Source of the DNA: Caldilineales bacterium
GTDB taxonomy: Bacteria > Chloroflexota > Anaerolineae > J102
DNA: 64,000 nt
NCBI GenBank assembly: GCA_019695115.1
Contig: JAIBAP010000017.1
Coordinates: 8,416-72,415 of the forward strand
Direction of reading: 5' to 3'
Position 1 is the first letter of the stretch. Each line of letters starts with the position of its first letter. Position numbers and translations under genes: made by a program. Under the pieces are notes generated by a model. That model worked only from the letters and a program-made list of their open reading frames with translations, made no database searches and had not been told where the DNA came from. This document shows, piece by piece, positions 22,592 through 51,630 of this stretch.

Positions 22592-22657
22592 GATTGGAGA
22601 TTAGAGATTGGAGATTGGCGCCAATCTCCAATCTCTAATCTCCAATCTCCAATCTCC
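22592..22657. repeat. Perfect palindrome built from CTCCAAT/GATTGGAG heptamers
   Basis: gattggagattagagattggagattggcgccaatctccaatctctaatctccaatctcc. Confidence 0.7.
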
Positions 22658-22668
22658 ACCCCCACCCT

Positions 22669-27876: not shown

Positions 27877-28964
27877 ACCCATCCCACCTCTACCCCGTCA
27901 TCCTGGCCGGCGGTGTGGGCAGCCGTCTGTGGCCCCGCAGCCGCCGCCGCACCCCCAAGCAATTCCTCGATCTGGCCGGGACCGGCCGCACCCTCTTGCA
28001 GGCCGCCTTCGACCGTATGGCGCCGCTCGTCCCTGCCGGGCAGGTCTACGTCGTCACCAACGCCGAATACGCGGGGACGGTGGCCGCGCAATTGCCCGAC
28101 CTGCCCGCGGCCAACATCCTGCGCGAGCCGGCCGCCCGCGGCTCCGCCGCCGCCATCGGCCTGGCCGCCATCCACCTCCAGGCCCGCGACCCCCAGGCAG
28201 TCATGGCCGTGCTCACGGCCGACCATCTCATCGCCGAGGACGAAACCCTACGCCAGATCCTGGTCGGGGCCGCCGAGCTTGCCCAGGAGGGCGTCCTCAT
28301 CACCCTGGGCATCCGGCCCACCTATGCCGAGACCGGCTACGGCTACATCGAGATGGGCGAGGGGCTGGGCGCCTTTGGCGGCCACCCCGCCCACCGGGTG
28401 ATCAGCTTCCGCGAGAAGCCCGACCAGGCCACGGCGGCCGCGTTTCTGGCTGCGGGCAACTATGCCTGGAACAGCGGCATGTTCGTCTGGCGCGTCGATG
28501 CCATCCTCTCCGAGTTCGAGCGCCAGCTCCCGCAACACCACCTGGCCCTCATCGGCCTGGCCGCCGCCCTGGGCGGAGAGGACGAGCCTGCCGCCTTCGA
28601 CCGCTTCTGGCTGCCGCTTCCCGGCAACATCAGCATCGACTACGGCATCATGGAAGGCGCTCGCGGCGTCGCCGTCTTCCCGGCCGACCTGGGCTGGAAC
28701 GACATCGGTTCGTGGGCGGCCCTGCTGGAAGTCCTGCCCAAAGACGAGGCCGGCAATGTGACGCATGGCCGTCACCTCGGCGTCGACAGTCGCAACGTCC
28801 TCGTCTACTCGCCCGACCGTCTGGTGGCCACCATCGGTCTGCAAGACATGGTCATCGTCGACGCCGGCGACGTCCTCCTCGTCATGCCCGCGGCCCGCGC
28901 CCAGGATGTGAAAGCCCTCCTCTCAGCCCTACGCGCCCGCGGATGGGATGAGGTGATGGAGTAG
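27873..28964 (+). CDS. manC: Mannose-1-phosphate guanylyltransferase (GDP-mannose pyrophosphorylase)
   Basis: N-terminal VILAGGVGSRLWP nucleotidyltransferase motif. Left-handed beta-helix C-terminal region. Confidence 0.85.
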   Translation: MNPSHLYPVILAGGVGSRLWPRSRRRTPKQFLDLAGTGRTLLQAAFDRMAPLVPAGQVYVVTNAEYAGTVAAQLPDLPAANILREPAARGSAAAIGLAAIHLQARDPQAVMAVLTADHLIAEDETLRQILVGAAELAQEGVLITLGIRPTYAETGYGYIEMGEGLGAFGGHPAHRVISFREKPDQATAAAFLAAGNYAWNSGMFVWRVDAILSEFERQLPQHHLALIGLAAALGGEDEPAAFDRFWLPLPGNISIDYGIMEGARGVAVFPADLGWNDIGSWAALLEVLPKDEAGNVTHGRHLGVDSRNVLVYSPDRLVATIGLQDMVIVDAGDVLLVMPAARAQDVKALLSALRARGWDEVME

Positions 28965-29190
28965 CAGGTGGCAAGTGGCAGGTGGCAGGTGGCAGGTGGC
29001 AAGTGGCAGGTGGCAAGTGGCAGGTGGCAAGTGGCAGGTGGCAAGTGGCAGGTCGCAGGTGGCAGGTGGCAGGTGGCAGGTCGCAGGTGGACGTTGACTG
29101 TTGATTGTTGATTGTTGACTGTTGATTGTTGCCCCCACTCCCTTCGGCAAACCCGCCAACCGCCCTTGTCTACTTGTCTACCTGTCTACC
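28964..29190. repeat. Long intergenic heptamer array (GGTGGCA/GGTCGCA then GTTGATT/GTTGACT then CTTGTCTAC)
   Basis: gcaggtggcaagtggcaggtggcagg…, then gttgactgttgattgttgattgttgactgttgattgttg, then cttgtctacttgtctacctgtctacc. Lies between convergent genes. Confidence 0.7.
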
Positions 29191-30328: not shown

Positions 30329-31582
30329 ATGTCTACCCAGCCCAATCGCCTGCCCTGGATCATCGGCGCCGTCCTTGCCGGCCTGTTTGTCTTCCTCTGC
30401 GCCCTGGTTGTCATCGTCGGCGCCGCCCTGGTTCCCTTCATGGCGCGCCGCGACAGCGCCCCCGAGACCGCGCGCGAGATGGTCATCCCGCAGCCGCAAC
30501 GCCCGGCCGACGCCGCCACCCCTGCGCCCGCGCCCACCCTGCCGCCCATCGACCCCAGCACCGACCAGGAAACGGCGATCTACACCCGCATCTACGAGTT
30601 CGCCAATCCCAGCGTCGTGGCCGTGCGCACACTCGACGCCAACGCCGCGCAGCAAGCCCCCGACCTCGATCCGTTCTTCCTCGACACGGGCGAAGGTTCA
30701 GGCTTCGTCTACGATGCCAGCGGCCACATCATCACCAACCGCCATGTGATCGCCAACGCCGGCAAGGTGGTGGTCCAATTTGCCGACGGCGCCCAGGCCC
30801 CAGCCGAGATCGTCGGTTCGGACCGTGACAGTGATCTGGCCGTGCTCAAGATCGACCCGACCGGCTTCGACCTGAACCCCCTACCCATTGGTGACACCGA
30901 TACGCTCAGAGTCGGCAGTCGCGTCATGGTCATCGGCAACCCCTTTGGCAATGCCAACACCCTCACCACCGGCATCATCTCGGCCCTGGGCCGACAGATC
31001 AGCCTGCCCGATTCGCAATTCACCCTGCCCGAAGTCATCCAGACCGACGCTGCCATCAACCCCGGCAACAGCGGCGGGCCGATGCTCAACGCCGACGGCG
31101 AAGTCATCGGCGTCGCCTTCATGATCCAGTCTCAATCTGGCTCCAGCGCCGGTATCGGCTTTGGCATCCCCGCCTACTTCGTCGAGCGCGTGGCCGACGC
31201 CATCATCGCCAACGGCGCCTATCAGCACCCCTGGTTAGGCGTGCGCGGCCAAAGTCTCTCGCCCTTCGCCAGCCGCGAACTGAATCTGCCGGTGGACCGG
31301 GGCGTGCTCGTGGTCGAGGCCATCGACAATGGCCCTGCCGCCAAGGCGGGGTTACGAGGCGGGGATAAGGAGGTGGAGGTCGAGGGCTTTGCCTTCACCA
31401 TTGGCGGCGACATCATCACCGCCATCGACGGCCAGCCCGTGACCGTCTTCGACGACCTGCTAGCCTATCTCAGCCGCTACACCGAACCCGGCCAACAGGT
31501 GACGCTGACCATCGTGCGCGACCGTGAAACGATGGAGCTTACCGTCACCCTCGAAGCGCGGCCGACCAGCCTGGGAGAGTAG
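30329..31582 (+). CDS. S1C (HtrA/DegP-like) serine protease with PDZ domain
   Basis: N-terminal TM. Trypsin-fold catalytic motifs (HVI…, D…, GNSGGP). C-terminal PDZ. Confidence 0.85.
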   Translation: MSTQPNRLPWIIGAVLAGLFVFLCALVVIVGAALVPFMARRDSAPETAREMVIPQPQRPADAATPAPAPTLPPIDPSTDQETAIYTRIYEFANPSVVAVRTLDANAAQQAPDLDPFFLDTGEGSGFVYDASGHIITNRHVIANAGKVVVQFADGAQAPAEIVGSDRDSDLAVLKIDPTGFDLNPLPIGDTDTLRVGSRVMVIGNPFGNANTLTTGIISALGRQISLPDSQFTLPEVIQTDAAINPGNSGGPMLNADGEVIGVAFMIQSQSGSSAGIGFGIPAYFVERVADAIIANGAYQHPWLGVRGQSLSPFASRELNLPVDRGVLVVEAIDNGPAAKAGLRGGDKEVEVEGFAFTIGGDIITAIDGQPVTVFDDLLAYLSRYTEPGQQVTLTIVRDRETMELTVTLEARPTSLGE

Positions 31583-31678
31583 GCAAGGAAACAGGTAGAC
31601 AAGTAGACAAGTAGACAAGTAGACAAGGCGTTGGCGGCGGATGGCGTTCCTTCGTTGATTGTTGATTGTTGACTGTTC
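31583..31678. repeat. GTAGACAA x4 plus GTTGATT x3 heptamer/octamer array
   Basis: gtagacaagtagacaagtagacaagtagacaag … gttgattgttgattgttgactgtt. Confidence 0.7.
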
Positions 31679-32761
31679 TCACCGCCTCTCCAACTCGCCC
31701 CCACAGCTGGCCCGGTAATAGGCCGCTTCCTGCTCGAAGCCGGAGGCGGCCTTTTGTTTGGTTTCGTCACCGATGGCCGCGGCTTTGCCCAGCTGCTCGA
31801 CCATGCCGGCCGTGCCCCAGTAGCGAGGGAGAACGAGGAGGGGGTCGCCCATCGCCCGTTCTTCCTTGCCCAGCGGGATCCAGTTATACATGCTCGGCCC
31901 ACGGGCGAAGACGGTGAAGCCGAGCTTGTAGCCGGCCGCGCGCGCCACCTCCACCGTCTTCTTGGTGAAATTCCCGCCCGGCCACACGAAGACCACCGGC
32001 CGGTAGCCAACATGTTTTTCCAGGATGGGGATGGGGCCGAAGATCTCCTCGCGGATCTGCTCGATCGGTGTGCTGGGCAGCATGTAGAGATGCCGCAGCC
32101 CGTGTGCCTGTACATCCAGCCGGCCCGTGGCGTGCAACCGCTCCAGTCGCTCCCACAGCCCCGCCCGCCTGTCTGTATCGGCGATGATCCAGCCTAGCGT
32201 CACCGTCCAGTCGTATTGCTCCAGGATGGGCAGGAAATAGCCCTCGACCGTGCCCAAGCGCCGGTCGTCTACGATCAACAACAGCGATCGCTCGGGGATG
32301 CGGGCGTTTTCTTCCAGAAAGGCCGCCGCCTGCGCGGCCGTCACCGTCTGATAGCCCAGCCGCCTGGCCTCGGCCATCGTCTGGCGGAAATAGGCCGGCG
32401 ATACGCCCTGCCGGCCGCCTGCGCCCACTCCCTCGCCCACGCGATGGTACATGATCGGCACAAGGATCGTGCCGGGAGGGCTGTTCTGTGGGTCCCAGCG
32501 CCGGCGCAAATAGTCGCAAACGTCATCTACATAGCTTTCGGGGCGGACGCCGCGCAGCAGATGTTTGGACGGGAACGGGATCGGCGGGGTGAGATCGCCC
32601 GCATTGGCTGGGGCGATGGTGGGGGTTGGCGAGGGGAGTGGCGTCGCTGCGGCGGCGCCAGGGGCCAAAGCGGCGCCACCAGACAGCACCGCCAGCAGAC
32701 AGCCGATGGCAATGGTAGATGCAGACCGCAAGCGGTGCTTGAAGACAAGATACAAACTCAT
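31679..32761 (-). CDS. Polysaccharide deacetylase (NodB-homology) family protein, secreted
   Basis: Signal peptide. MYHRV and …FVWPGG… motifs of the CE4/polysaccharide deacetylase fold. ATG at rc 32759-32761. Confidence 0.75.
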   Translation of the reverse strand: MSLYLVFKHRLRSASTIAIGCLLAVLSGGAALAPGAAAATPLPSPTPTIAPANAGDLTPPIPFPSKHLLRGVRPESYVDDVCDYLRRRWDPQNSPPGTILVPIMYHRVGEGVGAGGRQGVSPAYFRQTMAEARRLGYQTVTAAQAAAFLEENARIPERSLLLIVDDRRLGTVEGYFLPILEQYDWTVTLGWIIADTDRRAGLWERLERLHATGRLDVQAHGLRHLYMLPSTPIEQIREEIFGPIPILEKHVGYRPVVFVWPGGNFTKKTVEVARAAGYKLGFTVFARGPSMYNWIPLGKEERAMGDPLLVLPRYWGTAGMVEQLGKAAAIGDETKQKAASGFEQEAAYYRASCGGELERR

Positions 32762-32876
32762 CCGTGTTGGTCTCCGTTCATTAGCGCACTTTGCCAGCCG
32801 GATCGTACAGCAGCAACCATCTAGCGATGGAACTGAGCCGCCGCCAGCGAAGCGAGCGGTGGGCTGGCCCGATGTG

Positions 32877-33284
32877 TCAGGCATTCGTGCTATCCAATGC
32901 CATTTTTATCGATGCTTCTGCCATTCGCAATGCCTTGAGCCTGTTTCGCTGCAACGTGTGTTGCGAGGTTCCCGGCGAGAACTTCGCCTGAGCTTTCTCG
33001 GTTCTGCCTATCATCGCCGCAAACGCACGCAAGGCCTTCTGAAAATCGTCTCGTGTGAAACTATCTGCACCGCCAGCCTCGTTGATCATGAGCGCAGAGG
33101 CAAGGTGCAACGCTTCGAGGTTGTCTTGCAGCATCATATGTTGCCACGTTCCCGGCGCCAGTTTTCGCTGTGCCTTTTCGGACTTGGTGATAAGTGAAGC
33201 GATCGGTCGCATCGCCTCCTGCAACTCGTCTGCTGTGTAGACCAAAGAATTCCTTCTCATCTCAGGCGCCGTTTCTGTGCTCAT
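32877..33284 (-). CDS. Hypothetical low-GC small protein with an internal ~50-aa duplication (…EKAQxKxxPGTxQHxxLxxNxLxAL…)
   Basis: GC about 52% versus about 68% around it. Two copies of the motif, A(M/L)R(P/A)xAxxI…EKAQ(R/A)K(L/F)(A/S)PGT(W/S)QH…L(E/K)AL. Start ATG 33284 (MSTETAPEM), or 33260. Confidence 0.5.
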   Translation of the reverse strand: MSTETAPEMRRNSLVYTADELQEAMRPIASLITKSEKAQRKLAPGTWQHMMLQDNLEALHLASALMINEAGGADSFTRDDFQKALRAFAAMIGRTEKAQAKFSPGTSQHTLQRNRLKALRMAEASIKMALDSTNA

Positions 33285-33324
33285 CGACGCCACAACGCTA
33301 TGTAGCAGCCTGGCCTACCTGACG

Positions 33325-34557
33325 TCAATAAACAAAATCGCGCAGATTGTAGGGCACGCGCTGAGGCCCCCCCGACGCCGGGCCAGGGGGCGGCAGGGTG
33401 AGGGCGGCGCGGATGGCTCTCTCCTGCGCCTGGGCCAGGGCCGGGTCGGGCGCGTCCACGCCGTCGGCCGCGGCCAGGGCCAGATAGGGGGCATCCGGGT
33501 CGGGCTGGAAAGGGCTGAAGTAGATCAGGTCGCCCGCGGCCAGGGCCATGGCGTCGAGGATGGCGGTGGTGTCGGCGATGTGGCCGCGGTCGAAGCGCCG
33601 CCCGCCCACGCCCGTGAGCACGATCACGCCTACCTGCACACCCGCCGCTTTCAGCCGGCGCACGGCATCGAGCATAGCGGCGGCGGTGCTGGGTTTGCGC
33701 AGCCAGGCCAACAGCGGCTCGTGCCCGCTTTCCAGGCCGATGTAGACGCGGCGCAACCCCAGGCGGCGCAGCGCCCGGAAATCGTCCACCGTCTTGCGCT
33801 CGGCGCTGAGGCCATCGATGAAGGCATAGAGGCCGGTGATGCCGGTGGGATGGGCGGCCAACCAGGGGCGGCGCTGGCCGGGCGGCAGGTCATCGGGCAT
33901 GATCTCGAAAGCGCGATGGAGGACATCGAGCAGGGGCAGCAGGCGCGACTGAGGCATGATCAAGGCATTGGCGTCGGCCAGGAAGATGCTGCGGCGCAGA
34001 AGCAGGCCGGGGCCGAAGAAAGCGCGCACGGCTTCGATGTGGCGGGCGAACTCGTCTTCGCTCTTGATGCGGAAGCGCACGCCGCGATAGAGGGCGCAAA
34101 ACGTGCAGGTGTTGAACGAACAGCCCTCGGTGGCCTGCAACACCAGGGCCTGGTATTGGTCGGGCGGCAGGATGGCGACGGGGCGATAGATGGCGCCAAA
34201 GCGGGCGACATCGGCGGCGTAGTCGAAGCTCAGGCCGCGCTCCACCACCTGGGCAAACTCCGGCTGCAGGTCGAGCGCCGCCAATTGGCCCAGATCGGCG
34301 CGCAACTGGGCCAATAACTCCGCGGTCTCGCCTTCGTCCAACCAGAGGCGCTGCCGCGGGGCGCCGGCCTGGCGCCAGCGCGCCAGCACCCGGCCATCCA
34401 GCCCTCGCCGCAGGTTGCGCCCCTCGCGAAAGGCCCCGATCAAGCGCCCGGCCAGGTCGAGCGTGTAGACCAGGCCGCCGCTGAGACTGATGTTGAGGGC
34501 GTCATCGAGCCGAAGATGGGCCTGGCGACCGTCGGCAAGACGGAGGTCGTGATGCAT
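33325..34557 (-). CDS. Radical SAM enzyme with ~135-aa N-terminal extension
   Basis: Cys cluster EGCSFNTCTFC (reads as CX4CX2C) and glycine-rich/ribose-motif region RVYIGLESGHEPLLAWL…VGVIVLTGVGG. ATG at rc about 34557 (MHHDLRL). Confidence 0.75.
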   Translation of the reverse strand: MHHDLRLADGRQAHLRLDDALNISLSGGLVYTLDLAGRLIGAFREGRNLRRGLDGRVLARWRQAGAPRQRLWLDEGETAELLAQLRADLGQLAALDLQPEFAQVVERGLSFDYAADVARFGAIYRPVAILPPDQYQALVLQATEGCSFNTCTFCALYRGVRFRIKSEDEFARHIEAVRAFFGPGLLLRRSIFLADANALIMPQSRLLPLLDVLHRAFEIMPDDLPPGQRRPWLAAHPTGITGLYAFIDGLSAERKTVDDFRALRRLGLRRVYIGLESGHEPLLAWLRKPSTAAAMLDAVRRLKAAGVQVGVIVLTGVGGRRFDRGHIADTTAILDAMALAAGDLIYFSPFQPDPDAPYLALAAADGVDAPDPALAQAQERAIRAALTLPPPGPASGGPQRVPYNLRDFVY

Positions 34558-34594
34558 GTGGGCGGTTCGGCTATCGTGTCTTGCTTCGTGTGCG

Positions 34595-37120
34595 TCACGC
34601 CTGACCTGGCTGCCCCCTCGCCAGGACATCGCTGCCGGGTTCATCAACTGGCACGTCGCCGGCTTCTTCCTCAGCCGCTTCGTCCTCGCCTGCCCCGGCT
34701 TCGTCTTCTTCCTCTTCATCCTTGCCGCTGTGCAACTCTTGCATGCGGTCGTGCGCGGCCTGGAGCGCCGCCAGCACCCGGCCGTTGATCGAATCGGCGG
34801 GGTAGTTGCCTTCCTCGTCCATCTCGCCCATCGCCAGCCCCGTCAGCACTTCCAGCGCCTGGTCGACCGTCGTCACCGCCAACAGATGGAAGCGCCCGTT
34901 GGCTACGGCTTCCACCACATCCTCGCGCAAGACCAGATGCTCGACATTGGCCTGCGGCACGATCACGCCCTGGCTGCCCGTCAGTTCGCCCAAGGCCCGG
35001 CAGGTGTCGAAAAAGCCCTCCACCTTCTCGTTCACGCCGCCGATGGGCTGCACATCGCCGTGCTGGTTGATCGAGCCGGTGATGGCCAGGTCCTGGCGCA
35101 GGGGCAGGTCGGCGATGGCCGAAAGCAGGACGCACAGCTCGGCCACCGAGGCGCTGTCGCCCTCGACCCCCGCGTACGACTGCTCGAAAACCAGGGTGGC
35201 GTGCAGACTGAGCGGCAGGAGGCGGGCGTAGCGGCCGGAGAGGAAGGAACTGAGGATCATCACCGCTTTGGAGTGGATGGGGCCGCTGAGCCGGGCCTCG
35301 CGCTCGATGTCGATCACCCCCCCGCGCCCAAGAAAGGTGCGGGCGGTGATGCGGCTGGGGACGCCGAAGCTGCTGTTGCCCAGTTGCAGCACCGAAAGGC
35401 CGTTGATCTGGCCCACACGCTCGCCACCCACTGACATCAACATGATCCCGCGCCCGGTTTCCTCGCGCACCCATTCTTCGTAGCGATTCCCGCGCTGGCG
35501 TTTCTCGTCGATGGCCTGTTGGACATCAGCCGCCGTCACCAGGTCGCGGCCGTTCTGTCCGGCCCAGTAGCTGGCCTCTGTCACCAGGTCGGCGATATCG
35601 CGGAAGCGGGTGGACAGATAACGCTGGTCGCCCACCAGCCGCGAGCCGAAATCCACCACCTGCGCCGCTGCCGCCGGCAAGAAATGGCGTTCGTTCTGCT
35701 GCCGGCAGAGGGTGGCAATGAACTGCGCATAGTCCTGGATGTGTTCGGCATCGCGCGGCATGCGGTCGTCGAAATCGGCCTGCACCTTGAACAGCTCGTC
35801 GAAATCTTCATCGTAGGACGACAACAGATAATAGAGATAAGAAGACCCCGCCAACACCACCTTCAGGTTCAGGGGGATAGGCTCCGGCTCCAGGACCGAG
35901 GTGGAGATCAGCCCCAACGATTGGGCGTACTCCTCCACCCGCACCACCCGTTCCTTCAGCGCCCGCTTGAGCGCGTCCCAGGCCTGCGGTCGTTCCAGCA
36001 CGGCGGTGGCATCCAACACCAGGTAGCCGCCGTTGGCGCGGTGCAATGCGCCCGGCCGCACCATCGTGAAATCGGTGAACAGCGCCCCCATCACCGCCTG
36101 GTGCTCCACCCGCCCGACCAGATTGGCGAAATTGGGGTTGCTCTCGTACACCACCGGCGCGCCGAGGCCATCGCCATTGTCCACGAATAAGTTGATGCTA
36201 TAGCGGCGCAATAAGCCTTCGGCCCCCACAGCCTGCATCGCCGCCTGCAGATCGCCAGCCTTGCCATCCCCGCCCTTGAAGGCTTCGACATTGGCGACCA
36301 GATCTTCGGTCATGGTCTGCAAGTGGCGCTGGACATCGGGCAGGTCGTCGAAGCGGCTGTGCAGTTCGGCCAGGGGATGTTGGATGGTGAGCCGGGCAAC
36401 GCTTTCATCCAGGGCTGACATCTCGGCGTTGGCCTGGTTTTCGCGCTGGCGCATCTTGATGATGGCGGTATCCAGATCTGCCTGGAGTTTTTCGCGCAGT
36501 TTCAGCAGCTTGTCGCGCTGTTCTTCGGTCAGTTGTTCGAACTGGGCGTCGGTGATCGGTTTGCCGCCGATGACCGGGGTGAGCATGAAGCCGCCGGGCA
36601 GCCGGATGAGCGAGAAGTTGTATTTCTCCACCTGCTCGCTGATCTGGCGGAAGCGGGCTTCGTGGTCTTCTTTGAGGGCGGCGATGATCTTGTCGCGCTC
36701 TTTGACGTAGTCTTCGCTCTCGAACGCGGCCGGGATGGCGCGCTGAAGCTCTTTGACCAGGGCTTCCAGATCGGTTCGTAGCGCCCGGCCCTTGCCTGCC
36801 GGCACCAGGATGGCGTTGGGATGCGACGGATCCTGAAAATTGTGGACGTAAATCCAGTCGCCGGCCGGGGCCAGGCGGGCGGCGTCGGCCTGGATGAACT
36901 GGCGCACAGCGGTGGATTTGCCGGTGCCGGCCGGCCCGACGACGAAGATGTTGTAGCCTTTGGCGCTCATCCCCATGCCGAACTGCAGGGCGCGCAAGGC
37001 CCGCTGCTGGCCGATGATGCCGGGGAGGTCGGGCAAGTCGGCGGTGGAGGTGAAGTTGAACTGGCCGGGGTCGCAGAACGGGCGGATTTGGGCGGCGGTG
37101 AGGGCAGTAAGAGATGACAT
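34595..37120 (-). CDS. LonC/YcbZ-family Lon-like protease (AAA_32-type N-domain plus Lon S16 proteolytic domain)
   Basis: Walker A VVGPAGTGKST. C-terminal region is co-linear with E. coli YcbZ (IGQINGLSV…, EQSYAGVEGDSASVAELCVLLSAIADLP…, GGVNEKVEGFF). Acidic C-terminal tail. Confidence 0.85.
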   Translation of the reverse strand: MSSLTALTAAQIRPFCDPGQFNFTSTADLPDLPGIIGQQRALRALQFGMGMSAKGYNIFVVGPAGTGKSTAVRQFIQADAARLAPAGDWIYVHNFQDPSHPNAILVPAGKGRALRTDLEALVKELQRAIPAAFESEDYVKERDKIIAALKEDHEARFRQISEQVEKYNFSLIRLPGGFMLTPVIGGKPITDAQFEQLTEEQRDKLLKLREKLQADLDTAIIKMRQRENQANAEMSALDESVARLTIQHPLAELHSRFDDLPDVQRHLQTMTEDLVANVEAFKGGDGKAGDLQAAMQAVGAEGLLRRYSINLFVDNGDGLGAPVVYESNPNFANLVGRVEHQAVMGALFTDFTMVRPGALHRANGGYLVLDATAVLERPQAWDALKRALKERVVRVEEYAQSLGLISTSVLEPEPIPLNLKVVLAGSSYLYYLLSSYDEDFDELFKVQADFDDRMPRDAEHIQDYAQFIATLCRQQNERHFLPAAAAQVVDFGSRLVGDQRYLSTRFRDIADLVTEASYWAGQNGRDLVTAADVQQAIDEKRQRGNRYEEWVREETGRGIMLMSVGGERVGQINGLSVLQLGNSSFGVPSRITARTFLGRGGVIDIEREARLSGPIHSKAVMILSSFLSGRYARLLPLSLHATLVFEQSYAGVEGDSASVAELCVLLSAIADLPLRQDLAITGSINQHGDVQPIGGVNEKVEGFFDTCRALGELTGSQGVIVPQANVEHLVLREDVVEAVANGRFHLLAVTTVDQALEVLTGLAMGEMDEEGNYPADSINGRVLAALQAAHDRMQELHSGKDEEEEDEAGAGEDEAAEEEAGDVPVDEPGSDVLARGQPGQA

Positions 37121-37121
37121 G

Positions 37122-38165
37122 CTAGGCTCCTGATCGGCGTTTTGTCCTGGCGCGGCCCACCCATCCGGCCAGCCCGGCCAGCCCGCCTGCCAACAGCAGC
37201 ACGGTGGCCGGTTCCGGGATTTCGGGCGGGGGCGGCGGCCCGGTGATGATCACCTGCACCCGGTTGGAATCGCGCTGGTTGCCTTCAGCGAAGGTCACAA
37301 AGGCGCTGTTGTGCAGTGTGACCGGGGTCTGGACGGGGAGAGACGCCTTGACCCGGGCTTTGATCGTGACCAACACCTGTTGGCCTGGGTTCAGTGTCCC
37401 GATCTGAACCATGACTTTGTGGGCGGCGGCATCGTAGCTGGCGGTTCCCTGGCTGCTGCTGGCGCTCACGTTCTCGAGAAAGCTGCTGAGGGGGTCGCTG
37501 AGGATGACTTGGGTGGCAGGGGCGTTGCCCTGGTTGCCGACGGTCAGGGTGAAGGTGATGGGGGCGGTGGTGAAGATGCTGGCGCTGCTGGCGGCCTTCG
37601 TCACCGCCGGATCGACGACCGAGCTAAAGAGCAACTCGTGCGAGGCCGTGACCGGGGCGGCGTTGGCGGCGCCGAGCCTGGCGTTGTTGACCAGCAACAG
37701 CTCAGCCTGATCGCCCGTCCCGCCCACCTCCGGCAGCTGGTTGCGCGCCACCCGCACCTCGAAGCTCAGGCAGGTCTCTGGCCCCGGCGCCAGATCGCCC
37801 AGATCCCAGGTCAGGCGATGAGGGGCGGGGTCATAAACGCCGGTGGAGGAGCCGGGCAGGTAGTCGAGATTGGCCGGCAGATCATCGGTCAGCGTCGCGG
37901 CGCTGGCGGTTTCATCGCCGGTGTTCTGGAAGCACAGCCGGTAGGCAAAGACATCCCCCAACACCACCGGGCCTGTCACCGCCGCCGTTTTGCTCAGGCG
38001 CAGGGCCGGCCCCGAACCAGCGGCCCGGCCGGCCGGCGCCGCCCCCAGAGTCAAAAGAAGCACGAGCATGAGTAACACGCCTGGGCGAGGACGACCGGCT
38101 GCGTCTCTCATCGCTGTTTGCAGTCGCTGCCGAAGTAGTGCGAACATGCTCGTGCTTTCATTCAT
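37122..38165 (-). CDS. DUF11-repeat surface protein with PEP-CTERM sorting signal
   Basis: Signal peptide, conserved-repeat (DUF11-like) beta domains. C-terminus PEIPEPATVLLLAGGLAGLAGWVGRARTKRR is a PEP motif plus TM plus basic cluster. Stop lies 1 nt from the Lon-like start. Confidence 0.75.
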   Translation of the reverse strand: MNESTSMFALLRQRLQTAMRDAAGRPRPGVLLMLVLLLTLGAAPAGRAAGSGPALRLSKTAAVTGPVVLGDVFAYRLCFQNTGDETASAATLTDDLPANLDYLPGSSTGVYDPAPHRLTWDLGDLAPGPETCLSFEVRVARNQLPEVGGTGDQAELLLVNNARLGAANAAPVTASHELLFSSVVDPAVTKAASSASIFTTAPITFTLTVGNQGNAPATQVILSDPLSSFLENVSASSSQGTASYDAAAHKVMVQIGTLNPGQQVLVTIKARVKASLPVQTPVTLHNSAFVTFAEGNQRDSNRVQVIITGPPPPPEIPEPATVLLLAGGLAGLAGWVGRARTKRRSGA

Positions 38166-38267
38166 GGCATGGGCGCTGGCGTGAAGGCCAGCAGAAGCGG
38201 GAGGTGGGGTTGGGGCTGCGGCGGCGTGAGTGAAGACGCCGGCCGGCCGCGCCCCGACCCGGACGGG

Positions 38268-38639
38268 TTAGCGGGAGCGAAGCGCGTCGCGAATCTCGGT
38301 CAGCAGCTTCTCTTCGGTCGAGGGGCCAGGCGGCGGCGCCGCGGCTTCTTGCTTCTTGAAGCGTTGGTAGGGGACGACGACGAAATAGTAGACGACCAGG
38401 GCGATGAGGATGAAGTTGACCACTGCGGTCAGAAACGAGCCGTACTTGATCACGCTGTTGTTGAGCGTCAGCGTCAAGTCGTCGAAGCTGGGGGTGCCGA
38501 CGAAGATGCCGATGATGGGCATGAGCACGTTTTCGACCAACGAGGTGATCACGGCGCCAATGGCCGCAGCCATGATCAGACCCACAGCGATGTCGATCAG
38601 GCTACCCTTGAAAGCGAATTCCTTGAAACCCTTGAACAT
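38268..38639 (-). CDS. mscL: Large-conductance mechanosensitive channel
   Basis: MFKGFKEFAFKGSLIDIAVGLIMAAAIGAVITSLV… is the canonical MscL N-terminus and TM1. Confidence 0.9.
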   Translation of the reverse strand: MFKGFKEFAFKGSLIDIAVGLIMAAAIGAVITSLVENVLMPIIGIFVGTPSFDDLTLTLNNSVIKYGSFLTAVVNFILIALVVYYFVVVPYQRFKKQEAAAPPPGPSTEEKLLTEIRDALRSR

Positions 38640-38760
38640 CGTTGTTCCTCCTGAGAGTGGGGAAGGGGAAAATGGGATGAGAGATGAAACAGCGGCTCCA
38701 TTCTAGCAGGCTGGATGCGCCCCGACAAGTCCGCCTCACTCCCCCGCCCGCGGCGGCAGA

Positions 38761-40725
38761 CTACGACACCAGCACGTAGCCAAAGCCCCGCACCGTGCGC
38801 AGAAACTGGACATCGCGGCGGGTGGGGTGCTGGAGTTTCTGGCGGAGCCGCCAGACCAGCACCCTGAGTGTATCCAGCGAGATCTGTTCGTCCAACGCCC
38901 ACATCGCCGACCGCAGCTGGTCGTGCAGGACGACCTGATCGGCATGTTCGGCCAGATAGACGAGCAGGCGGTACTCGTTGTGCGACAGCGTCAGCAACTC
39001 GTCGTTGACCCATGCTCGCTGCAAGGTGGTGTTGATGCGAATCGTACCTTCGCCGACGACCAGGAGATCGGAAGCAATCGGCGGCGAGGCGGCGGCGCCG
39101 TTATCGGCTGCGGGTGCACTCTCGGAGACCAGGCGATAGCGGGCCGGCTGACTCTCGTCTTTGACCGGCAACCACAATGCAAACGAAGTCGTCTGCCCGT
39201 CCCTTGTCGCCTCACTTTGTCTGATCTCGGTCGATAGCCGCCCCCCGTGTCCCTCGGCGATGAGCCGCGCCCTGGCCAGGCGGAATTCGGACACGCGTTC
39301 CTCGTCCGTCAACCGCACCGAGCGCAGCGATGACGCCGGCTCGCTGGCCCTTGCCTCCACACCGAAGCGGATGATCACCCACCGATCCCAGGTGTGTGCT
39401 CGCGCCAGCAACACCTGGCTGCGGGTGCGGGTCAGGGAGACATCGATCAAAACGCCGAGGGCTTCTTCCAGCAAGGTCGGATCGCCAACGATGGCGGGAA
39501 GTGGCTGCTTCAGCTCCAGGTCGAGGCGGACGCCGCGCAATCGGGCCAGGTCGCGCCACATGCCTACGATCTGCTCCATCGTCTCGGCCAGGTCGATGGG
39601 CATCCAGCGCATGTCGGTCAGCGCCGTTTCGATGTGCTGGATGCTTTCCACGTCCTTGATCAGCGAATGCACCTTGCGGGCGTTCTTGCGGATGGCATCG
39701 AGGGCATCGACAGACTGGGGGGCAGGCGCCGATTCGGCGGTGGTGCGCAGCCATTCGGCGTAGCCTTCGACCAGGGTAAGGGCCGAACGGATGTCGATCA
39801 CGATCAGATCGAGCAGGGCGCGACGCTCGCGATCCAGGCTGGTGAGGCGGTCGTGGGCCTTGCGCAACTCCTGCGCCTGCCTCTCCATCTGTTCCTGCAG
39901 CAGGGTCAGTTCGTTTCGTTGTTGGCGCAACGATTGCTCGGCCAACGCCTCGGCCTCCATCTGCCGCACCGCCAGGACGAGGCCGGTCTGGCCGGGGTGG
40001 GGCATGATCAGCACATCGCAGGGGCGCAGGTGGTCTTCGTCCAGCAGCAGACCGGGCAGCCGCCAGGGTGGCGCCACTGCCCGGGCGATGCTTTGCAGCT
40101 CGTCCTCCAACCCGGCCAGCGAGGGGAAGACATCGGCCACCGGCCAGCCCGCCAACGACCGCCGCCGGTACTCGACGAAATTCGAGGTGGCGGCCTTGAT
40201 CAGCAGTTGTTCATCCACGACGGCCATCATCAGCCCCAGACGCTCGCAGATAGTCAGCATGTCGTCGGTATCGAGGTCGAGGCTTGTGGGCGTGTGGTTC
40301 ATGGCCCAGGCCGTGGCTGAGGCCGTGGCTGAGGCCAGGCGGCTGGCGTTACGCCGGTGCATCTCTTGTTGGGCCGGCGCCATTGCGGCCGTGACGTCCA
40401 CTAGCGTGATCAGCAGGCCGGCCGGTTGTGTGTGTGCTTCGACGCGGATATCGAAGTAGCCGGGCGCCGCCGACGGGGCCAGGCGATGGACGACGCCGTG
40501 TAATTCCCAGGCCGGCGTGCGGCCCTGGGCCACGGCCAGGAGGGTCTCGTCGGCGCCGGCAAAGGCCGGCAGCACCTCGGCCAGGTGGATGCCCGGCTGG
40601 CGCCGCCCGACCACGGCCCAGAACCCCGCCGATGCCTCCTGCACCCGCAGGTCGTCGTCCACGAGGGCGTAAGCCGCGCCGGGCGAGGGCGGCGGCTGAT
40701 CGGGCCGGGAAGAGGAAGTGCTCAT
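38761..40725 (-). CDS. Transcriptional regulator: sensor domains plus histidine-kinase-like (His-less) core plus C-terminal OmpR/PhoB-type winged-helix DNA-binding domain
   Basis: C-terminal LTLSHNEYRLLVYL…LRTVRGFGYVL is a trans_reg_C domain. The central DHp/HATPase-like region lacks the phospho-His (…DIRSALTLVEGY…). Confidence 0.65.
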   Translation of the reverse strand: MSTSSSRPDQPPPSPGAAYALVDDDLRVQEASAGFWAVVGRRQPGIHLAEVLPAFAGADETLLAVAQGRTPAWELHGVVHRLAPSAAPGYFDIRVEAHTQPAGLLITLVDVTAAMAPAQQEMHRRNASRLASATASATAWAMNHTPTSLDLDTDDMLTICERLGLMMAVVDEQLLIKAATSNFVEYRRRSLAGWPVADVFPSLAGLEDELQSIARAVAPPWRLPGLLLDEDHLRPCDVLIMPHPGQTGLVLAVRQMEAEALAEQSLRQQRNELTLLQEQMERQAQELRKAHDRLTSLDRERRALLDLIVIDIRSALTLVEGYAEWLRTTAESAPAPQSVDALDAIRKNARKVHSLIKDVESIQHIETALTDMRWMPIDLAETMEQIVGMWRDLARLRGVRLDLELKQPLPAIVGDPTLLEEALGVLIDVSLTRTRSQVLLARAHTWDRWVIIRFGVEARASEPASSLRSVRLTDEERVSEFRLARARLIAEGHGGRLSTEIRQSEATRDGQTTSFALWLPVKDESQPARYRLVSESAPAADNGAAASPPIASDLLVVGEGTIRINTTLQRAWVNDELLTLSHNEYRLLVYLAEHADQVVLHDQLRSAMWALDEQISLDTLRVLVWRLRQKLQHPTRRDVQFLRTVRGFGYVLVS

Positions 40726-41240
40726 GCCTGAGGTGCAAGCAGCGACTGCGCCAGCGACTGGAAGGCCGCTTCGACCTGGGCGCCATTGAGGGCGCTGGTG
40801 AGGAAATAGGGCGCTTTCCAGCGGGCCGCCAATTCCTGCAGCCGGCGTTCGTAGGGCGCCGGGTCAGGCGCCAGATCGATCTTGTTGCAGGCGAAGACCA
40901 GGGCGGCGTGGCGGTTGATCTGGGTGAAGCTGGTGGCGTAGGTATTGAGGAGGCTGAAGGTGTCGGGGCGGAGCACATCGGCCACCAGCAGGGCGCCGGC
41001 GCCCCCGCGATAGTAGGACGCCTCCATCTGGCTGAAGGTCTCGCCGCCGGCCAGGTCCCACAACACCAGCACGACCCGCTTGCCCGCCGCGGCCAGCGTC
41101 ACCTCTTTGCGGCTGACGTGGACGCCGATCGTCGCCAGGTAGTCGGTCTCGAACTTGTTGTAGACATAACGCCGGGCAAGGCTGGTCTTGCCGACGGCAA
41201 AATCGCCCAGCAGACAGACCTTGCGTTGAATAACTTCCAT
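40722..41240 (-). CDS. Ras-like small GTPase (MglA/Roc-like)
   Basis: G1 GDFAVGKTS, G3 WDLAGGE, G4 NKID. ATG at rc 41238-41240 with RBS GGAGGT. Confidence 0.8.
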   Translation of the reverse strand: MEVIQRKVCLLGDFAVGKTSLARRYVYNKFETDYLATIGVHVSRKEVTLAAAGKRVVLVLWDLAGGETFSQMEASYYRGGAGALLVADVLRPDTFSLLNTYATSFTQINRHAALVFACNKIDLAPDPAPYERRLQELAARWKAPYFLTSALNGAQVEAAFQSLAQSLLAPQA

Positions 41241-41257
41241 CGCTGCGACCTCCAAGA

Positions 41258-42640
41258 TCAGGGGAGAATGGCCACCCATCGCGCCGGAACCCAACCATCA
41301 TAGTCGGCCGGGCCTGTGGGCGGATAGGCGATATGCACCCACGGCGGCCGGCGCTCGATGATGCGAACGATCTGGCCCAAGAACGCCACCCGTTGGCTGG
41401 GACGCTCGTCGGGATCGGGGATGCGGCGGAGATAGACATTGCCCACCATCCTGCCCAGGACAATCGCGGCCGTGGTCGTGGCGGCGATGGTGGGGCTGGG
41501 GGTGGGCGTGGGGGTTGGTGTGGGTGTGGTTGTGGGGCTGGCGGTGGGCGTGGGGGTGGCGGTGGGGGTGGGGCTGGGGGTGGAGGTTGGCGTCGCCGAG
41601 GGTGGGAGCGTGGGGGTGGCGGTGGGCGCCGTCAAGTAGAGCACGGCCGTTGGGGCCAGCGCCGCCATGACTCGCGGCGCCGCCCGGTAGGTCAGCCAGC
41701 CGCAACTGCAGAGCAGGGCCATGAAGACCAGCGCCAGGACGACCAGGCCGGTGGTCGGCGGCCGGGGCGGGCCGGCCTCGTGGCCGAGCAACAGCCTGTC
41801 GAGGGGCGGCGCCAGGAGTTCTTCGCTCCCTGGGTCGCCGCGGTAGTCGCGCACGACGGCCAGATGATTCATGTGCACGGCCGCCAGCGCCTCGCGCATG
41901 GTCTGGTAGATGTCGGCGGGCGGGATGCCGCGCCCGACCAGGGCCAGGTAGGTGTAGCGCCCTTCTTCCAGCAGGATCATCTGGTCGCTGTACTTGATCT
42001 CGTGCAGCGCCTCGTCTCCCTCCCCGCCCTGGAAACTCTCGCGGGCAAAACTGCGGATGGCCGTCAACAGCGCCGCCATCAGGTCGGCATCCTCCAGATC
42101 GGCCGCCAGGCTCCGTTGGGCCATGACCAGGCCGGTGTCGTTGTGAATGAGGAAGACGTGTCCGGTCTGCCAGGGCAAGGCTTCTCGCAGAGCCGCCGTC
42201 CCCTCATCCACCCCGCTCATCCGCGCCCGCAGGCGCTGCCAGGCCCCGCCCAGGCTGAAGGCGCGTTGCACGCGGCTGTCCACCTGTCGGGCCAGCGTCT
42301 GCAGGGCCTCGGCCAGGGCCCGCTGGATGGTGCGACCGATCACCGGCGTCAGGGCGGCGATGATCGATTCGCGCTGTTCCTGCACTTGTTTTTGCAGCGC
42401 CGCGGCCACCACCGGGCGGATGGCTTCGGCGAATTCGTCCGGGTTGGTGCGCGCGCGTTCGGCCAGAGCGCCGATCAACAGTGGCTCGATCAGCGCCACA
42501 AGATGGTCGGCGTCTTCGGATTGCGCCCGCACCTTGTCCAGCTCGGTGCGCAGCGCCTCCAGTTGTTTGCGGTCCTGCGTCAGCAGGATTTCGCGCAGCG
42601 CCTCCAGTTCACTGGCGAAGGCGACGGAACCGGTTGTCAT
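41258..42640 (-). CDS. Membrane protein with coiled-coil N-region, Roadblock/LC7 (MglB-like) domain, TM helix, Pro/Thr linker and SH3b-like C-terminus
   Basis: …GHVFLIHNDTGLVMAQRS…DADLMAALLTAIRSF…ILLEEGRYTYLALVGRG fits the roadblock fold. TM LVVLALVFMALL. PT linker. C-terminal …DYDGWVPARWVAIL. Confidence 0.5.
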   Translation of the reverse strand: MTTGSVAFASELEALREILLTQDRKQLEALRTELDKVRAQSEDADHLVALIEPLLIGALAERARTNPDEFAEAIRPVVAAALQKQVQEQRESIIAALTPVIGRTIQRALAEALQTLARQVDSRVQRAFSLGGAWQRLRARMSGVDEGTAALREALPWQTGHVFLIHNDTGLVMAQRSLAADLEDADLMAALLTAIRSFARESFQGGEGDEALHEIKYSDQMILLEEGRYTYLALVGRGIPPADIYQTMREALAAVHMNHLAVVRDYRGDPGSEELLAPPLDRLLLGHEAGPPRPPTTGLVVLALVFMALLCSCGWLTYRAAPRVMAALAPTAVLYLTAPTATPTLPPSATPTSTPSPTPTATPTPTASPTTTPTPTPTPTPSPTIAATTTAAIVLGRMVGNVYLRRIPDPDERPSQRVAFLGQIVRIIERRPPWVHIAYPPTGPADYDGWVPARWVAILP

Positions 42641-42672
42641 GGTCTTTTGCCCTGCCGGGGCCGGTGGCTACG

Positions 42673-43065
42673 CTATTTGCCGTCCCGTTTCAGCTGTTCG
42701 CCCATCTGGATTAGCATGGAAGCCAGGTCGAAACGCGTGGTCTTCTCGTAGGCCAGCTGGTCGAGCCGGGCCGTCACCGCCGACCGCAGTTCAGCGAGCC
42801 ACCGTTCCGTATCAGCGCGCAATTCCTGGAATTGCCTCTTCATCTCGGCCTGAGTCTGGCGGAAGTTCTCGGCGGTGCGGTCATCCAATGCCTGCATTTG
42901 CGCCTCGATCGCCGCCTGAGCGGTGGTCATTCGCTCCTCGTGCTCGGTGAAACGATGGTTGTATTCCTCCATATTACGGCCAAAGAGGATGTCACGGATC
43001 TTGAAGACATCGCTCATGGCGTCTACGACTGCCTCTTGCTGCGCCTGCGCATCTGTTTTTGCCAT
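42673..43065 (-). CDS. Small coiled-coil protein (first gene of the GTPase operon)
   Basis: ATG at rc 43065 (MAKTDAQAQQE). Heptad-rich about 130 aa. No enzyme motif. Confidence 0.4.
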   Translation of the reverse strand: MAKTDAQAQQEAVVDAMSDVFKIRDILFGRNMEEYNHRFTEHEERMTTAQAAIEAQMQALDDRTAENFRQTQAEMKRQFQELRADTERWLAELRSAVTARLDQLAYEKTTRFDLASMLIQMGEQLKRDGK

Positions 43066-43269
43066 CGAAGAAGACCTCCGGGAGAAAGAAGTTGGGGGAA
43101 AGAGATGAAAAGTTAGGAACAGAACCAGAACCATCTATTTGTCGGGGCGATAGTCAGCAATACTGACAATCAACCTTACATCGGGGGGTATCTTACTTCA
43201 ACCCCTGCCAGGTGTCAATGACGGCAGCGATCCCCGCCTCGTGGAGTCCGTGTTGCCCATGCTATACTG

Positions 43270-44538
43270 ATGGCGATGGTGCTCTTGCTCAACCCTCCCT
43301 CTCCAGCCGACGCCGTTGCCAACCGCGAGGGCGTGGCGGGTTTTGGCGCCCTCTCGACCGGCTTTGCCTACCCGCCCCAGACGCTGGCCGTGGTCGTCGC
43401 CGCCTGCCGCCAGGCCGGGTTGGGGGCGGCGGTGTTGGATGCAGTTGGTGAACGCCTTGATTGGGCGGCGACGGTCGCCCGGATTCAGGTCGCGGCGCCG
43501 GCGCTGTTGGCCGTTCTGTCCAGCCACACCACGCTGGCGGCCGACTGCGCCGCCCTGGGTGGGCTGCGCCATGCTTTCCCCGGCCTGCCCACGGTCGCCA
43601 TCGGCGCCGGCGCCCGTTTCGACGCCGATCGGCTGCTGGCGGCGGGGGCATCACACGTCCTGTTGGGCGACCCTGACCTGGCCCTGGCCCGGCTGGCCGC
43701 GGCGCCCCTGCCCCCGCCCGGCCCCGTGCGCGTGCGCGACCTGCTCCCCCACCAGCACAATCATGCCGGCCTGGTGCGCGACCCCGGCCTCTTGCCTCGC
43801 CCGGCCTGGGACGCCGTCCCCTGGTCACAGTACGGCTTCCTCACCCTTTCCACCGCCCGCGGCTGCGATGATGGCTGCACCTTCTGCGCCTATATGGCCG
43901 TGCAGGGGCGCTCGTTTCGACCCCGGCCGGCGGCCGAGGTGGTGGACGAGATGCTGTGGTTGCAAGACGTCTTTCATCCGCGCCGGATCATGGTGCGCGA
44001 CCTGGTTTTTGCCGCCGACCGCGACCGCGCTCTGACCATCGCCCGCCAGCTGGCCGCCGCTGGCTTTCGCACCGCCTGGGAATGCGAATCGCGGCCGGAA
44101 CATTTCGACCCGACGTTGCTCAAACAGATGGCGCAGGCCGGTTGTACAGTGATCAAGCTGGGGATCGAGACCACCGACCCCGAGCTGCTGGTCAAACTCG
44201 AACGCATCGCCGCCGTCCAGGAAGCCGCTCCCTACCTGGCCTATACCCGCCGCGTCATCGCTGACGCCCGCCGCTACGGCATTCGCACCCGCGTTTTCGT
44301 CCTCGCCGGGCTGCCCGGTCAGACGGCCGCACACACCGCCGCCACGGTCGCTTTCCTGCGCCAGGCCCGGCCCGATTTCGTCCACTCGCGCCCCTACACC
44401 TCCTTTCCCCATGTCCCCCTCGGCCCGGCCCCATCCTCGCCCGACCTGGACGAACAACTGCGCAGCCTCGAAGCCGTCGCCGCCGAATGCCAAACCCGCT
44501 CTGCTCGCCCTTCCCTCCTCCGCCGCTGGCTGAAATGA
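43270..44538 (+). CDS. B12-binding-domain radical SAM enzyme
   Basis: N-terminal cobalamin-binding-like Rossmann region (MVLLLNPP…VAIGAG…). Canonical CDDGCTFC (CX3CX2C). …IKLGIETT… glycine/ribose motif. Confidence 0.8.
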   Translation: MAMVLLLNPPSPADAVANREGVAGFGALSTGFAYPPQTLAVVVAACRQAGLGAAVLDAVGERLDWAATVARIQVAAPALLAVLSSHTTLAADCAALGGLRHAFPGLPTVAIGAGARFDADRLLAAGASHVLLGDPDLALARLAAAPLPPPGPVRVRDLLPHQHNHAGLVRDPGLLPRPAWDAVPWSQYGFLTLSTARGCDDGCTFCAYMAVQGRSFRPRPAAEVVDEMLWLQDVFHPRRIMVRDLVFAADRDRALTIARQLAAAGFRTAWECESRPEHFDPTLLKQMAQAGCTVIKLGIETTDPELLVKLERIAAVQEAAPYLAYTRRVIADARRYGIRTRVFVLAGLPGQTAAHTAATVAFLRQARPDFVHSRPYTSFPHVPLGPAPSSPDLDEQLRSLEAVAAECQTRSARPSLLRRWLK

Positions 44539-44600
44539 CACAAATGGGAGAAACACAGATAATACTTTTTATCTGTTTTATGCAACTGTTACGCAGATGA
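44535..44600 (+). CDS. Candidate 21-aa small ORF (MTQMGETQIILFICFMQLLRR) in AT-rich tandem element, copy 1
   Basis: ATG overlaps the rSAM stop (ATGA). Sequence is unusually AT-rich. Frame differs from copy 2 by one T in a T-run. Confidence 0.2.
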   Translation: MTQMGETQIILFICFMQLLRR

Positions 44601-44609
44601 TATGATAAT

Positions 44610-44687
44610 ATGACACAAATGGGAGAAACACAGATAATACTTTTATCTGCTTTATGCGACTGTTGCGCTGGTGATCTGGCTAAATGA
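44610..44687 (+). CDS. Candidate 25-aa small ORF (MTQMGETQIILLSALCDCCAGDLAK), copy 2
   Basis: Tandem duplicate of the previous element. Cys-rich C-terminus (CDCC). Confidence 0.25.
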   Translation: MTQMGETQIILLSALCDCCAGDLAK

Positions 44688-44695
44688 TAGCAATG

Positions 44696-44748
44696 GGAGA
44701 ATCTCCAATCTCCAATCTCCAATAACCAATAACCAATCTCCAATAACC
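44696..44748. repeat. CTCCAAT / AACCAAT heptamer array
   Basis: atctccaatctccaatctccaataaccaataaccaatctccaataacc. Confidence 0.6.
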
Positions 44749-44757
44749 ACCCCCCCC

Positions 44758-45891: not shown

Positions 45892-46062
45892 AGTTGCGTG
45901 TTGCGTGTTCCGTGATGCGTGTTGCGTGTTGCGTAGCGCCTGCGGCGCAAACGCCTCCCGGAACACGTAGCACGAACCCCGAACCCCGAAGCACGAAACA
46001 CGGAACACGTAGCACGAACCCCGAACCCCGAAGCACGGAACACGGAACACGGAACACTCCCC
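45892..46062. repeat. Palindromic GTGTTGC/GTGTTCC … GGAACAC heptamer array (171 bp)
   Basis: gttgcgtgttgcgtgttccgtgatgcgtgttgcgtgttgcgtagcgcctgcggcgcaaacgcctcccggaacacgtagcacgaaccccgaaccccgaagcacg… with repeated 30-bp subunits. Confidence 0.7.
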
Positions 46063-51106: not shown

Positions 51107-51630
51107 GATCGAAGCTCCTTGTGGACAAAAACAGAGCCAGGGTCGCCTGGCGCGTTCAACAACGCTAACAATCTGTAGCATAGAGCAATCAGGTCACGTC
51201 TGCCAGTGCCGGAAGTCATATCTGGGCCATGTGCGCGTGCTTACCGTGACACTGTACGCAGCAAATCGCAGCCGTGTTTCGCGCCGCAAAGCCTGTTCGC
51301 TGCCAACGCTGCCGACAGGAACGGCGGCGGCGCCAACGACCCCGACCTCGCCTGCGACCAGGCTCCAAACGACAGCTTCACTCCCTCCACCCCCCTTTTC
51401 CCGCCCCCCTTCCGCCCATTTGCGCCTGGGCGATGGCTGCGCGTATCATCCCCGCACCACACAATCACACAGCAGGTGCAACGGCTGAGCGCAGGACGTG
51501 GTGCGCAGATCGGCGGTAGCAAGCCGATGCGGTGGGGTTTCGCTGATGACGAAGTGGCTGGGTGCGTATCGCTGCCTGGCCTGGAGCCGGAGCAACCTGC
51601 CCCGATGCAGGACAAAACAGGAGGTCTACG

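Follow-up and report, generated by a model that had tools for sequence, protein, structure and literature searches.

We studied a block of four minus-strand genes in a 64,000-nt stretch of a Caldilineales bacterium genome (GenBank assembly GCA_019695115.1, contig JAIBAP010000017.1, positions 8,416 to 72,415), which is referred to below as the window. According to the list of open reading frames (ORFs), the genes lie at 37122-38165, 34595-37120, 33325-34557 and 32877-33284, as given in a first-pass annotation of the same DNA. Pfam and NCBIfam searches, together with the ORF list, bore out the identities proposed there: a DUF11/PEP-CTERM protein, a LonC-type Lon-like protease, a radical S-adenosylmethionine (rSAM) enzyme and a small protein with two repeats and a low guanine-plus-cytosine (GC) content. 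The first two gaps between the ORFs measure 1 and 37 nt, as annotated. The third, annotated as 31 nt, amounts to 40 nt from the small-gene start at 33284, and a value of 31 nt is obtained only if translation begins at the GTG at 33293 instead. The packing is tight enough for co-transcription, in line with the single operon suggested in the annotation. All four genes are part of a same-strand run of about 10 genes between 43134 and 31679, which makes it arbitrary to delimit the block at four. The annotation had also likened the block to a maturation cassette, that is, a protease and an rSAM enzyme placed next to their substrate or partner.

The small gene (32877-33284, minus strand) encodes a stand-alone protein of 135 aa. 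It was said to occupy a low-GC pocket, and it does: its GC content is 53.4% compared with 64-70% for the neighbors, and the GC content of its third codon positions is 0.62 compared with 0.80-0.86. We compared the window with the closest other species (locus L001 in our numbering), in which the rSAM enzyme is 87%, LonC 94% and a polysaccharide deacetylase 80% identical to the window proteins. This comparison revealed an inserted segment of about 0.5 kb (approximately 32805-33320), which contains the small gene and sits between the stop codon of the rSAM gene and the start of the deacetylase gene. The two genes are separated by 563 nt in the window and by about 50 nt in L001, and the surplus of about 515 bp is the low-GC segment (GC 0.556). 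The similarity to L001 picks up again at 'gat(c/g)cggctggcaaag', near 32803. In loci L001-L004 and L010 the same gap is merely 25-105 nt long, and the small gene is missing there.

The deacetylase gene itself (31679-32761, minus strand; PF01522, E=1.5e-14) likely starts at the ATG at 32761, which is M42 of a 401-aa ORF. Homology to L001 extends from residue 40, and the protein is called as 360 aa in conspecific contigs. A short tandem array downstream of it (31578-31627) varies in copy number between conspecific strains.

For the wider comparison, we used an rSAM-centered set of 80 genome loci, kept from a one-genome-per-species collection in which at least 570 stretches hold a relative of the enzyme. 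The loci were searched with all window proteins. None of the 80, L001 included, contains the small protein. At 99% identity, the small gene was found only in the conspecific contigs L097 and L098 (98.5% nucleotide identity). The deacetylase gene is the ancestral downstream neighbor of the rSAM gene, and the small gene is a recent foreign insertion of about 0.5 kb. The transfer presumably ran into this lineage.

The small protein had no match in Pfam, NCBIfam, PHROG or PADLOC. Its two motif copies of about 50 aa, already noticed in the first pass, proved to be a significant repeat, in which 22 of 49 residues are identical, and the alignment score is 119 compared with 22.6 +/- 4.2 for shuffled sequences. 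Both copies are predicted to form helical hairpins. The AlphaFold2 (AF2) model is a bundle of four long helices with a predicted local distance difference test (pLDDT) score of 84.5, and fold searches of the PDB and BFVD gave no specific match, since they recovered nothing but helical bundles of a generic kind that did not reach E<=1e-3.

Relatives of this protein are numerous. A word-seeded search found 639 of them, while an exhaustive profile search found 664 clusters at 50% identity, nearly all of them about 120 aa long. Ten longer relatives were scanned as a possible source of informative architectures. Their additional Pfam domains did not agree: two relatives carried GNAT, one each carried PATR, DUF6273 or DUF5946, one had weak beta-propeller matches and four had none. 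These long forms are probably gene-call fusions.

We also examined where members of the small family reside. Three loci looked up individually showed unrelated, spaced-out contexts, and one of the records is labeled as an archaeon. When 80 metagenome loci were added to these three, the 83 loci (447 kb) contained no homologues of the rSAM enzyme, LonC, the DUF11 protein or the deacetylase, and no neighbor was kept beyond one closely related lineage. The nucleotide identity of the small gene to homologues in distant hosts reaches 76-81% and is confined to the coding sequence. In 23 of 49 loci, the family member lies more than 3 GC points under its flanks. No copy was found in a scan of 2.9 million viral contigs. 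The high nucleotide identity prompted us to consider a non-coding element; this was ruled out in view of the confident AF2 model, the significance of the repeat at the protein level and the reading frame, which stays open in hundreds of homologues. The small gene stands alone and was acquired by horizontal transfer. Its product is neither a substrate nor a partner of the rSAM enzyme, because it is missing at all 80 rSAM loci and because the rSAM and LonC genes are missing at all 83 loci of its own family. This speaks against the cassette proposed in the first-pass annotation.

The rSAM enzyme (410 aa; 33325-34557, minus strand) matches PF04055 with 48.4 bits (cut-off 29.5), whereas all its NCBIfam matches are far under their cut-offs. 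The start at 34557 is consistent with the alignment of homologues. The protein contains only three cysteines, C146, C151 and C154, which form a CX4CX2C motif and are invariant in 69 aligned homologues. In the AF2 model (pLDDT 94.5), eight beta strands (residues 1-72) and three helices (residues 75-123) precede the barrel. The closest solved sequence is OxsB (E=2.6e-5), which shares this spacing, and the CX4CX2C cluster motif of OxsB is described as unusual (PMC9204698). Foldseek recovered matches to the barrel only (MgmA, Elp3, MtaB, AprD4 and RimO), with template modeling (TM) scores of at most 0.47.

The N-terminal 136 aa matched no Pfam family, including the PqqD-like recognition element (RRE) of ribosomally synthesized and post-translationally modified peptides (RiPPs). 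There was also no match to the B12-binding domain PF02310, the N-terminal domain being predicted as all-beta followed by helices, and with three cysteines in the whole protein there are none for a SPASM/twitch auxiliary cluster. Because of these three cysteines, the N-terminus devoid of Pfam matches and the barrel-only fold matches, we consider the enzyme to be free of SPASM/twitch, RRE and B12-binding domains. The earlier picture of a peptide-modifying enzyme does not agree with these results.

Relatives of the enzyme in the 80 loci come mostly from Chloroflexota, with some from Armatimonadota, Nitrospinota, Acidobacteriota (Blastocatellia) and Candidatus Neomarinimicrobiota. Clustering of the flanking ORFs in these loci revealed no universal neighbor. 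The most common true neighbors are an ABC-transporter ATPase (23 of 80 loci, on mixed strands) and a downstream DsbA-like thioredoxin-fold gene (20 of 80). The remaining ones are housekeeping genes, for example DnaJ, CoaE, PrmA and P-type ATPases. The enzyme more likely acts on a housekeeping target than on a co-encoded peptide.

Two further observations concern the rSAM gene and its surroundings. Thioredoxin-fold genes recur nearby in other genomes: the 20 loci with the DsbA-like gene fall within L017-L071, and a 227-aa thioredoxin-like gene is found upstream of LonC in L093-L095. Additionally, the window differs from the conspecific contigs L097 and L098 by about 60 substitutions packed into about 250 nt of the rSAM gene (34130-34400, codons ~52-142), while the rest of the block is about 99.7% identical. 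The rSAM proteins are thus 93% identical and the LonC proteins 99.8%. The divergent tract encodes the helical part of the N-terminal domain and looks like the product of recombination with a divergent allele. A diversity-generating retroelement was rejected as its source, since the substitutions are not adenine-specific.

The protease (841 aa; 34595-37120, minus strand) carries the Pfam domains AAA_32 (6.6e-55), LonB_AAA-LID, LonC_helical (PF20437, 52.4 bits) and Lon_C, that is, an AAA-like module with a helical insertion followed by an S16 protease domain. It aligns to Meiothermus taiwanensis LonC (MtaLonC; PDB 4fwd) with E=3e-94 over residues 22-174 and 307-799. Its Walker-B-like motif GGYLVLDA has no catalytic Glu and aligns to GGYLILDA of MtaLonC, and the Ser-Lys dyad region (EGDSAS ... 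NEKVEGFF) is likewise present and aligned. After the catalytic Lys there is a Cys-containing insertion, CRALGELTG, one residue longer than the CKALG-LSG of MtaLonC. A degenerate Walker B (GYLILDA) and a CX3GLX(G/E) insertion after the catalytic Lys are described as LonC features (PMC3391209). The Walker A motif of the window protein, GPAGTGKS(T), is intact, so nucleotide binding is likely retained, as judged from the motif.

A PADLOC search with the block proteins produced only weak matches to the AAA and Lon domains of the protease (mad8, 4.1e-06, in the P-loop region; BrxL, 0.0051) and none for the other three proteins, in keeping with the first-pass remark that no canonical defense partner is present. 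Within the LonC coding sequence, ARAGORN called an antisense tRNA-Ser (34732-34807, plus strand) that has no Rfam support and is probably a false positive.

The first-pass annotation had left the synteny of the LonC and rSAM genes to be examined in other genomes. The two are indeed neighbors in relatives, but in a single clade only, and even there the arrangement is dispensable. In the rSAM-centered set, LonC lies directly upstream of the rSAM gene only in L001-L006 and L016. LonC-centered look-ups added three loci: L088 and L096, with the order FtsK, LonC-rSAM (overlapping), a 133-aa thioredoxin and ArgJ, and L089, with the order DBI_PRT ..., LonC-rSAM and AAA_14. In a neighbor-joining tree of the rSAM proteins, all ten LonC-adjacent cases, the window included, fall within one Caldilineales-type clade. 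There, the adjacency occurs in 10 of 17 testable loci and in three flanking contexts; outside the clade it occurs in none of the 59 testable loci.

Seven members of the clade (L008-L014) have no LonC within the available flank. One of them, L010, keeps the downstream order rSAM-deacetylase-HtrA-ManC, with a 2580-aa ORF ahead of the rSAM gene. In their identity values, the rSAM-adjacent LonC proteins make up a separate group, at 61% or more, before a drop to roughly 52%. In the genome GCA_027002405.1, a flavoprotein gene follows a LonC that belongs to this identity group (L093), and the rSAM gene is on a separate contig (L014). Two further LonC proteins, at 62% and 50% identity, precede an adenylosuccinate synthase gene and a Usp gene, respectively. 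In general, the LonC-rSAM adjacency is genuine and has persisted fairly well in a single clade, without being obligate or a property of either family.

The first gene of the block (37122-38165, minus strand) encodes a 347-aa protein with two DUF11 domains (PF01345, E=1.6e-30). DUF11 has been renamed CLIPPER and has a CnaA-like Ig fold found in cell-surface stalk proteins, some of which have intramolecular isopeptide bonds (PMC12617251). The C-terminal tail IPEPATVLLLAGGLAGLAGWVGRARTKRR exceeds the TIGR02595 cut-off (17.1 bits vs 16) and falls just short of that of PF07589 (20.5 vs 20.7). It contains the PEP motif, the transmembrane helix and the basic cluster of PEP-CTERM proteins, and the protein also carries an N-terminal hydrophobic segment. 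It is predicted to be a small secreted surface protein. In conspecific contigs, gene callers begin this gene at 38069 (315 aa). No exosortase was found among the part of the window ORFs that was scanned.

Of the 7 close syntenic loci, just three (L001, L002 and L006) have a DUF11 homologue upstream of LonC. In L005 and L016, a two-component-like gene adjoins LonC directly, with no DUF11 gene between them. The DUF11 gene is a variable neighbor that nothing evidently links to LonC or the rSAM enzyme, and a role of the PEP-CTERM protein as the substrate of a cassette, at which the annotation hinted, is not upheld.

Further upstream, on the same strand (38761-43134), we observed a 153-aa ORF, a 460-aa ORF without a family, a Ras/Roc-like small GTPase gene and a gene whose 654-aa product has HisKA-like and Trans_reg_C domains and no receiver match. 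The last two genes overlap by 4 nt. L005 and L016 have both of them upstream of LonC, and L016 also has the 460-aa gene there.

A promoter and terminator scan of the block gave counts close to those of shuffled sequence and is uninformative for this phylum. In an Rfam scan of 31000-39500 at E<=1, the only match was a group II fragment under the threshold and no tRNA appeared; the low-GC pocket is thus without structured RNA.

We consider it probable that the block reflects the ordinary, lineage-specific gene order of Caldilineales-type Chloroflexota with one foreign insertion, and is not a dedicated multi-gene system. Under this interpretation, the CLIPPER/DUF11 surface protein would presumably be exported and handled via its PEP-CTERM signal. 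LonC, by analogy with MtaLonC, should act on unfolded proteins as a protease or a chaperone and would not use ATP to power unfolding. The rSAM enzyme would be a single-cluster enzyme with a private N-terminal beta domain, from a family that has no fixed genomic partner. The acquired segment of about 0.5 kb would have landed right behind the rSAM stop codon, where the small gene is probably expressed by read-through.

It is worth stressing that several points weigh against this interpretation. The gaps of 1, 37 and 40 nt and the lack of any terminator-like site on the coding strand between the genes fit a single transcript, and the four genes may well be co-transcribed; such co-transcription does not indicate a shared pathway. 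The comparison genomes are mostly fragmentary metagenome-assembled genomes, in which a gene missing from a contig is not necessarily missing from the genome. Moreover, in L088, L096 and L089 the LonC-rSAM pair persists at only 60-65% protein identity with all other neighbors changed. The pair thus outlasts most neutral adjacencies, and some benefit of co-expression within the clade is possible.

This persistence would also be expected if LonC and the rSAM enzyme were a two-gene functional module of the Caldilineales clade, with the DUF11 and small genes as bystanders. The rSAM enzyme could, for example, modify a protein that LonC processes or degrades, or modify LonC itself. The adjacency in 10 of 17 clade loci, the three unrelated flanking contexts, the sometimes overlapping reading frames and the distinct identity group of the adjacent LonC proteins are consistent with such a module. 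On the other hand, the rSAM genes of L008-L014 are without LonC in the available flank, GCA_027002405.1 keeps both genes apart, LonC proteins of the same identity group precede other genes, all 59 rSAM loci outside the clade are without LonC, and we found no biochemical precedent in the literature. Taken together, these results make the module unlikely. Somewhat less likely again is the combined proposal that LonC and the CX4CX2C rSAM enzyme act as a protein-modification and proteolysis module in this one clade and that, independently of this, the rSAM family represents a new, widespread Chloroflexota activity with an undescribed N-terminal beta domain.

Another possibility concerns the small gene only, namely that it is a mobile accessory gene related to conflict (immunity, antitoxin or anti-defense) that arrived on a mobile element. 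This would agree with its patchy occurrence in varied contexts, among Chloroflexota and in at least one archaeal record, its GC content, often under that of the host, its nucleotide identity to genes of distant hosts and the Abi_C or Imm5-like genes among some of the neighbors of its relatives. However, it has no PADLOC or PHROG match, no copy in the viral contigs scanned, no conserved partner gene, no conserved flanking DNA to mark the ends of an element and no specific fold match, and we regard this role as improbable.

Finally, a single four-gene maturation cassette, in which the small or the PEP-CTERM protein would be modified by the rSAM enzyme and cleaved by the Lon-like protease, finds agreement in the tight spacing and shared orientation seen in this one species but is contradicted by every comparative test (the small gene occurs at 0 of 80 rSAM loci, the rSAM and LonC genes at 0 of 83 small-gene loci, and the DUF11 gene at just 3 of 7 close syntenic loci), the small gene is compositionally foreign, the rSAM enzyme has neither an RRE nor an auxiliary cluster and the small protein is predicted to be a well-folded four-helix bundle instead of a leader-core peptide, so that we consider this cassette extremely improbable.

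Several features elsewhere in the window deserve mention. Short intergenic tandem arrays with a 7-nt (sometimes 8-nt) unit are scattered along it; apart from the array behind the deacetylase gene, they lie at 3054-3091, 19747-19842, 22621-22658, 28964-29131, 44700-44749, 45893-46057, 54506-54545, 59663-59692 and 61718-61750. The unit is GCAGGTG, repeated 18 times, in 28964-29090, and several other arrays have the form CACGGAA/CGGAACA. A second rSAM gene (43270-44538, plus strand) is followed by a CoxE-like von Willebrand factor A (VWA) gene (44671-45891, plus strand), and an AT-rich tandem repeat with a 74-nt unit lies between them at 44526-44701. This second enzyme has a class-B-like core and weak NCBIfam matches to HpnJ, AprD4 and PhpK, far under their cut-offs; it is 25% identical to the rSAM enzyme of the block and unrelated to it. 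At 51562-54462 (plus strand), we observed a gene for a predicted surface protein of 966 aa with Chlam_PMP repeats and a cadherin domain, which contains an 11-copy array of a 75-nt unit (52295-53129). A tRNA-Asp called by ARAGORN inside this coding repeat (52506-52595, minus strand) is probably a false positive.

In general, every part of the block belongs to a known superfamily, and the arrangement is not unprecedented once the insertion is recognized. The locus may serve as a caution, as a suggestively tight layout of protease, rSAM enzyme and small ORF turned out, by comparative genomics, to combine a recent insertion with decaying synteny. What retains value are the rSAM family, with its rare CX4CX2C motif and private N-terminal domain, the small family of four-helix bundles of about 120 aa, which appears to move between distant hosts, and the LonC variant with a retained canonical P-loop. 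Both the rSAM and the small-protein family are uncharacterized and have no curated models, which is common for Chloroflexota, and none of the three is surprising enough to change the thinking in the field.

Compared with known systems, the block resembles SPASM-type RiPP and maturation cassettes in that a protease, an rSAM enzyme and a small ORF stand side by side on the same strand. It differs from them in that the rSAM enzyme has neither SPASM/twitch cysteines nor an RRE and the small ORF is not conserved beside it. The protease of a RiPP cassette is a leader peptidase, whereas the one in the window is a large cytoplasmic Lon-like enzyme of the quality-control type. The similarity of the rSAM enzyme to OxsB is marginal and includes the CX4CX2C spacing. 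OxsB and other class B enzymes carry a cobalamin-binding Rossmann domain, in place of which the window enzyme has the eight-stranded beta domain and three helices that belong to no Pfam family. Its barrel fold is closest to those of MgmA, Elp3, MtaB and RimO. The DUF11 protein is far shorter than typical fibrillar adhesins but shares with CLIPPER PEP-CTERM surface proteins its two CLIPPER domains, the N-terminal hydrophobic segment and the PEP-CTERM tail. The window protease is about 110 residues longer than MtaLonC, with an acidic C-terminal tail, and has a canonical Walker A (GPAGTGKS) where MtaLonC has a degenerate one (GPPSLGKHE). Its AAA-like and protease domains are homologous to those of the LonC subfamily (MtaLonC and Thermus TTC1975; PDB 4fwd and 4fw9), and it shares with MtaLonC the LonC_helical insertion, the Glu-less Walker-B-like motif, the Ser-Lys dyad and the Cys-containing insertion.

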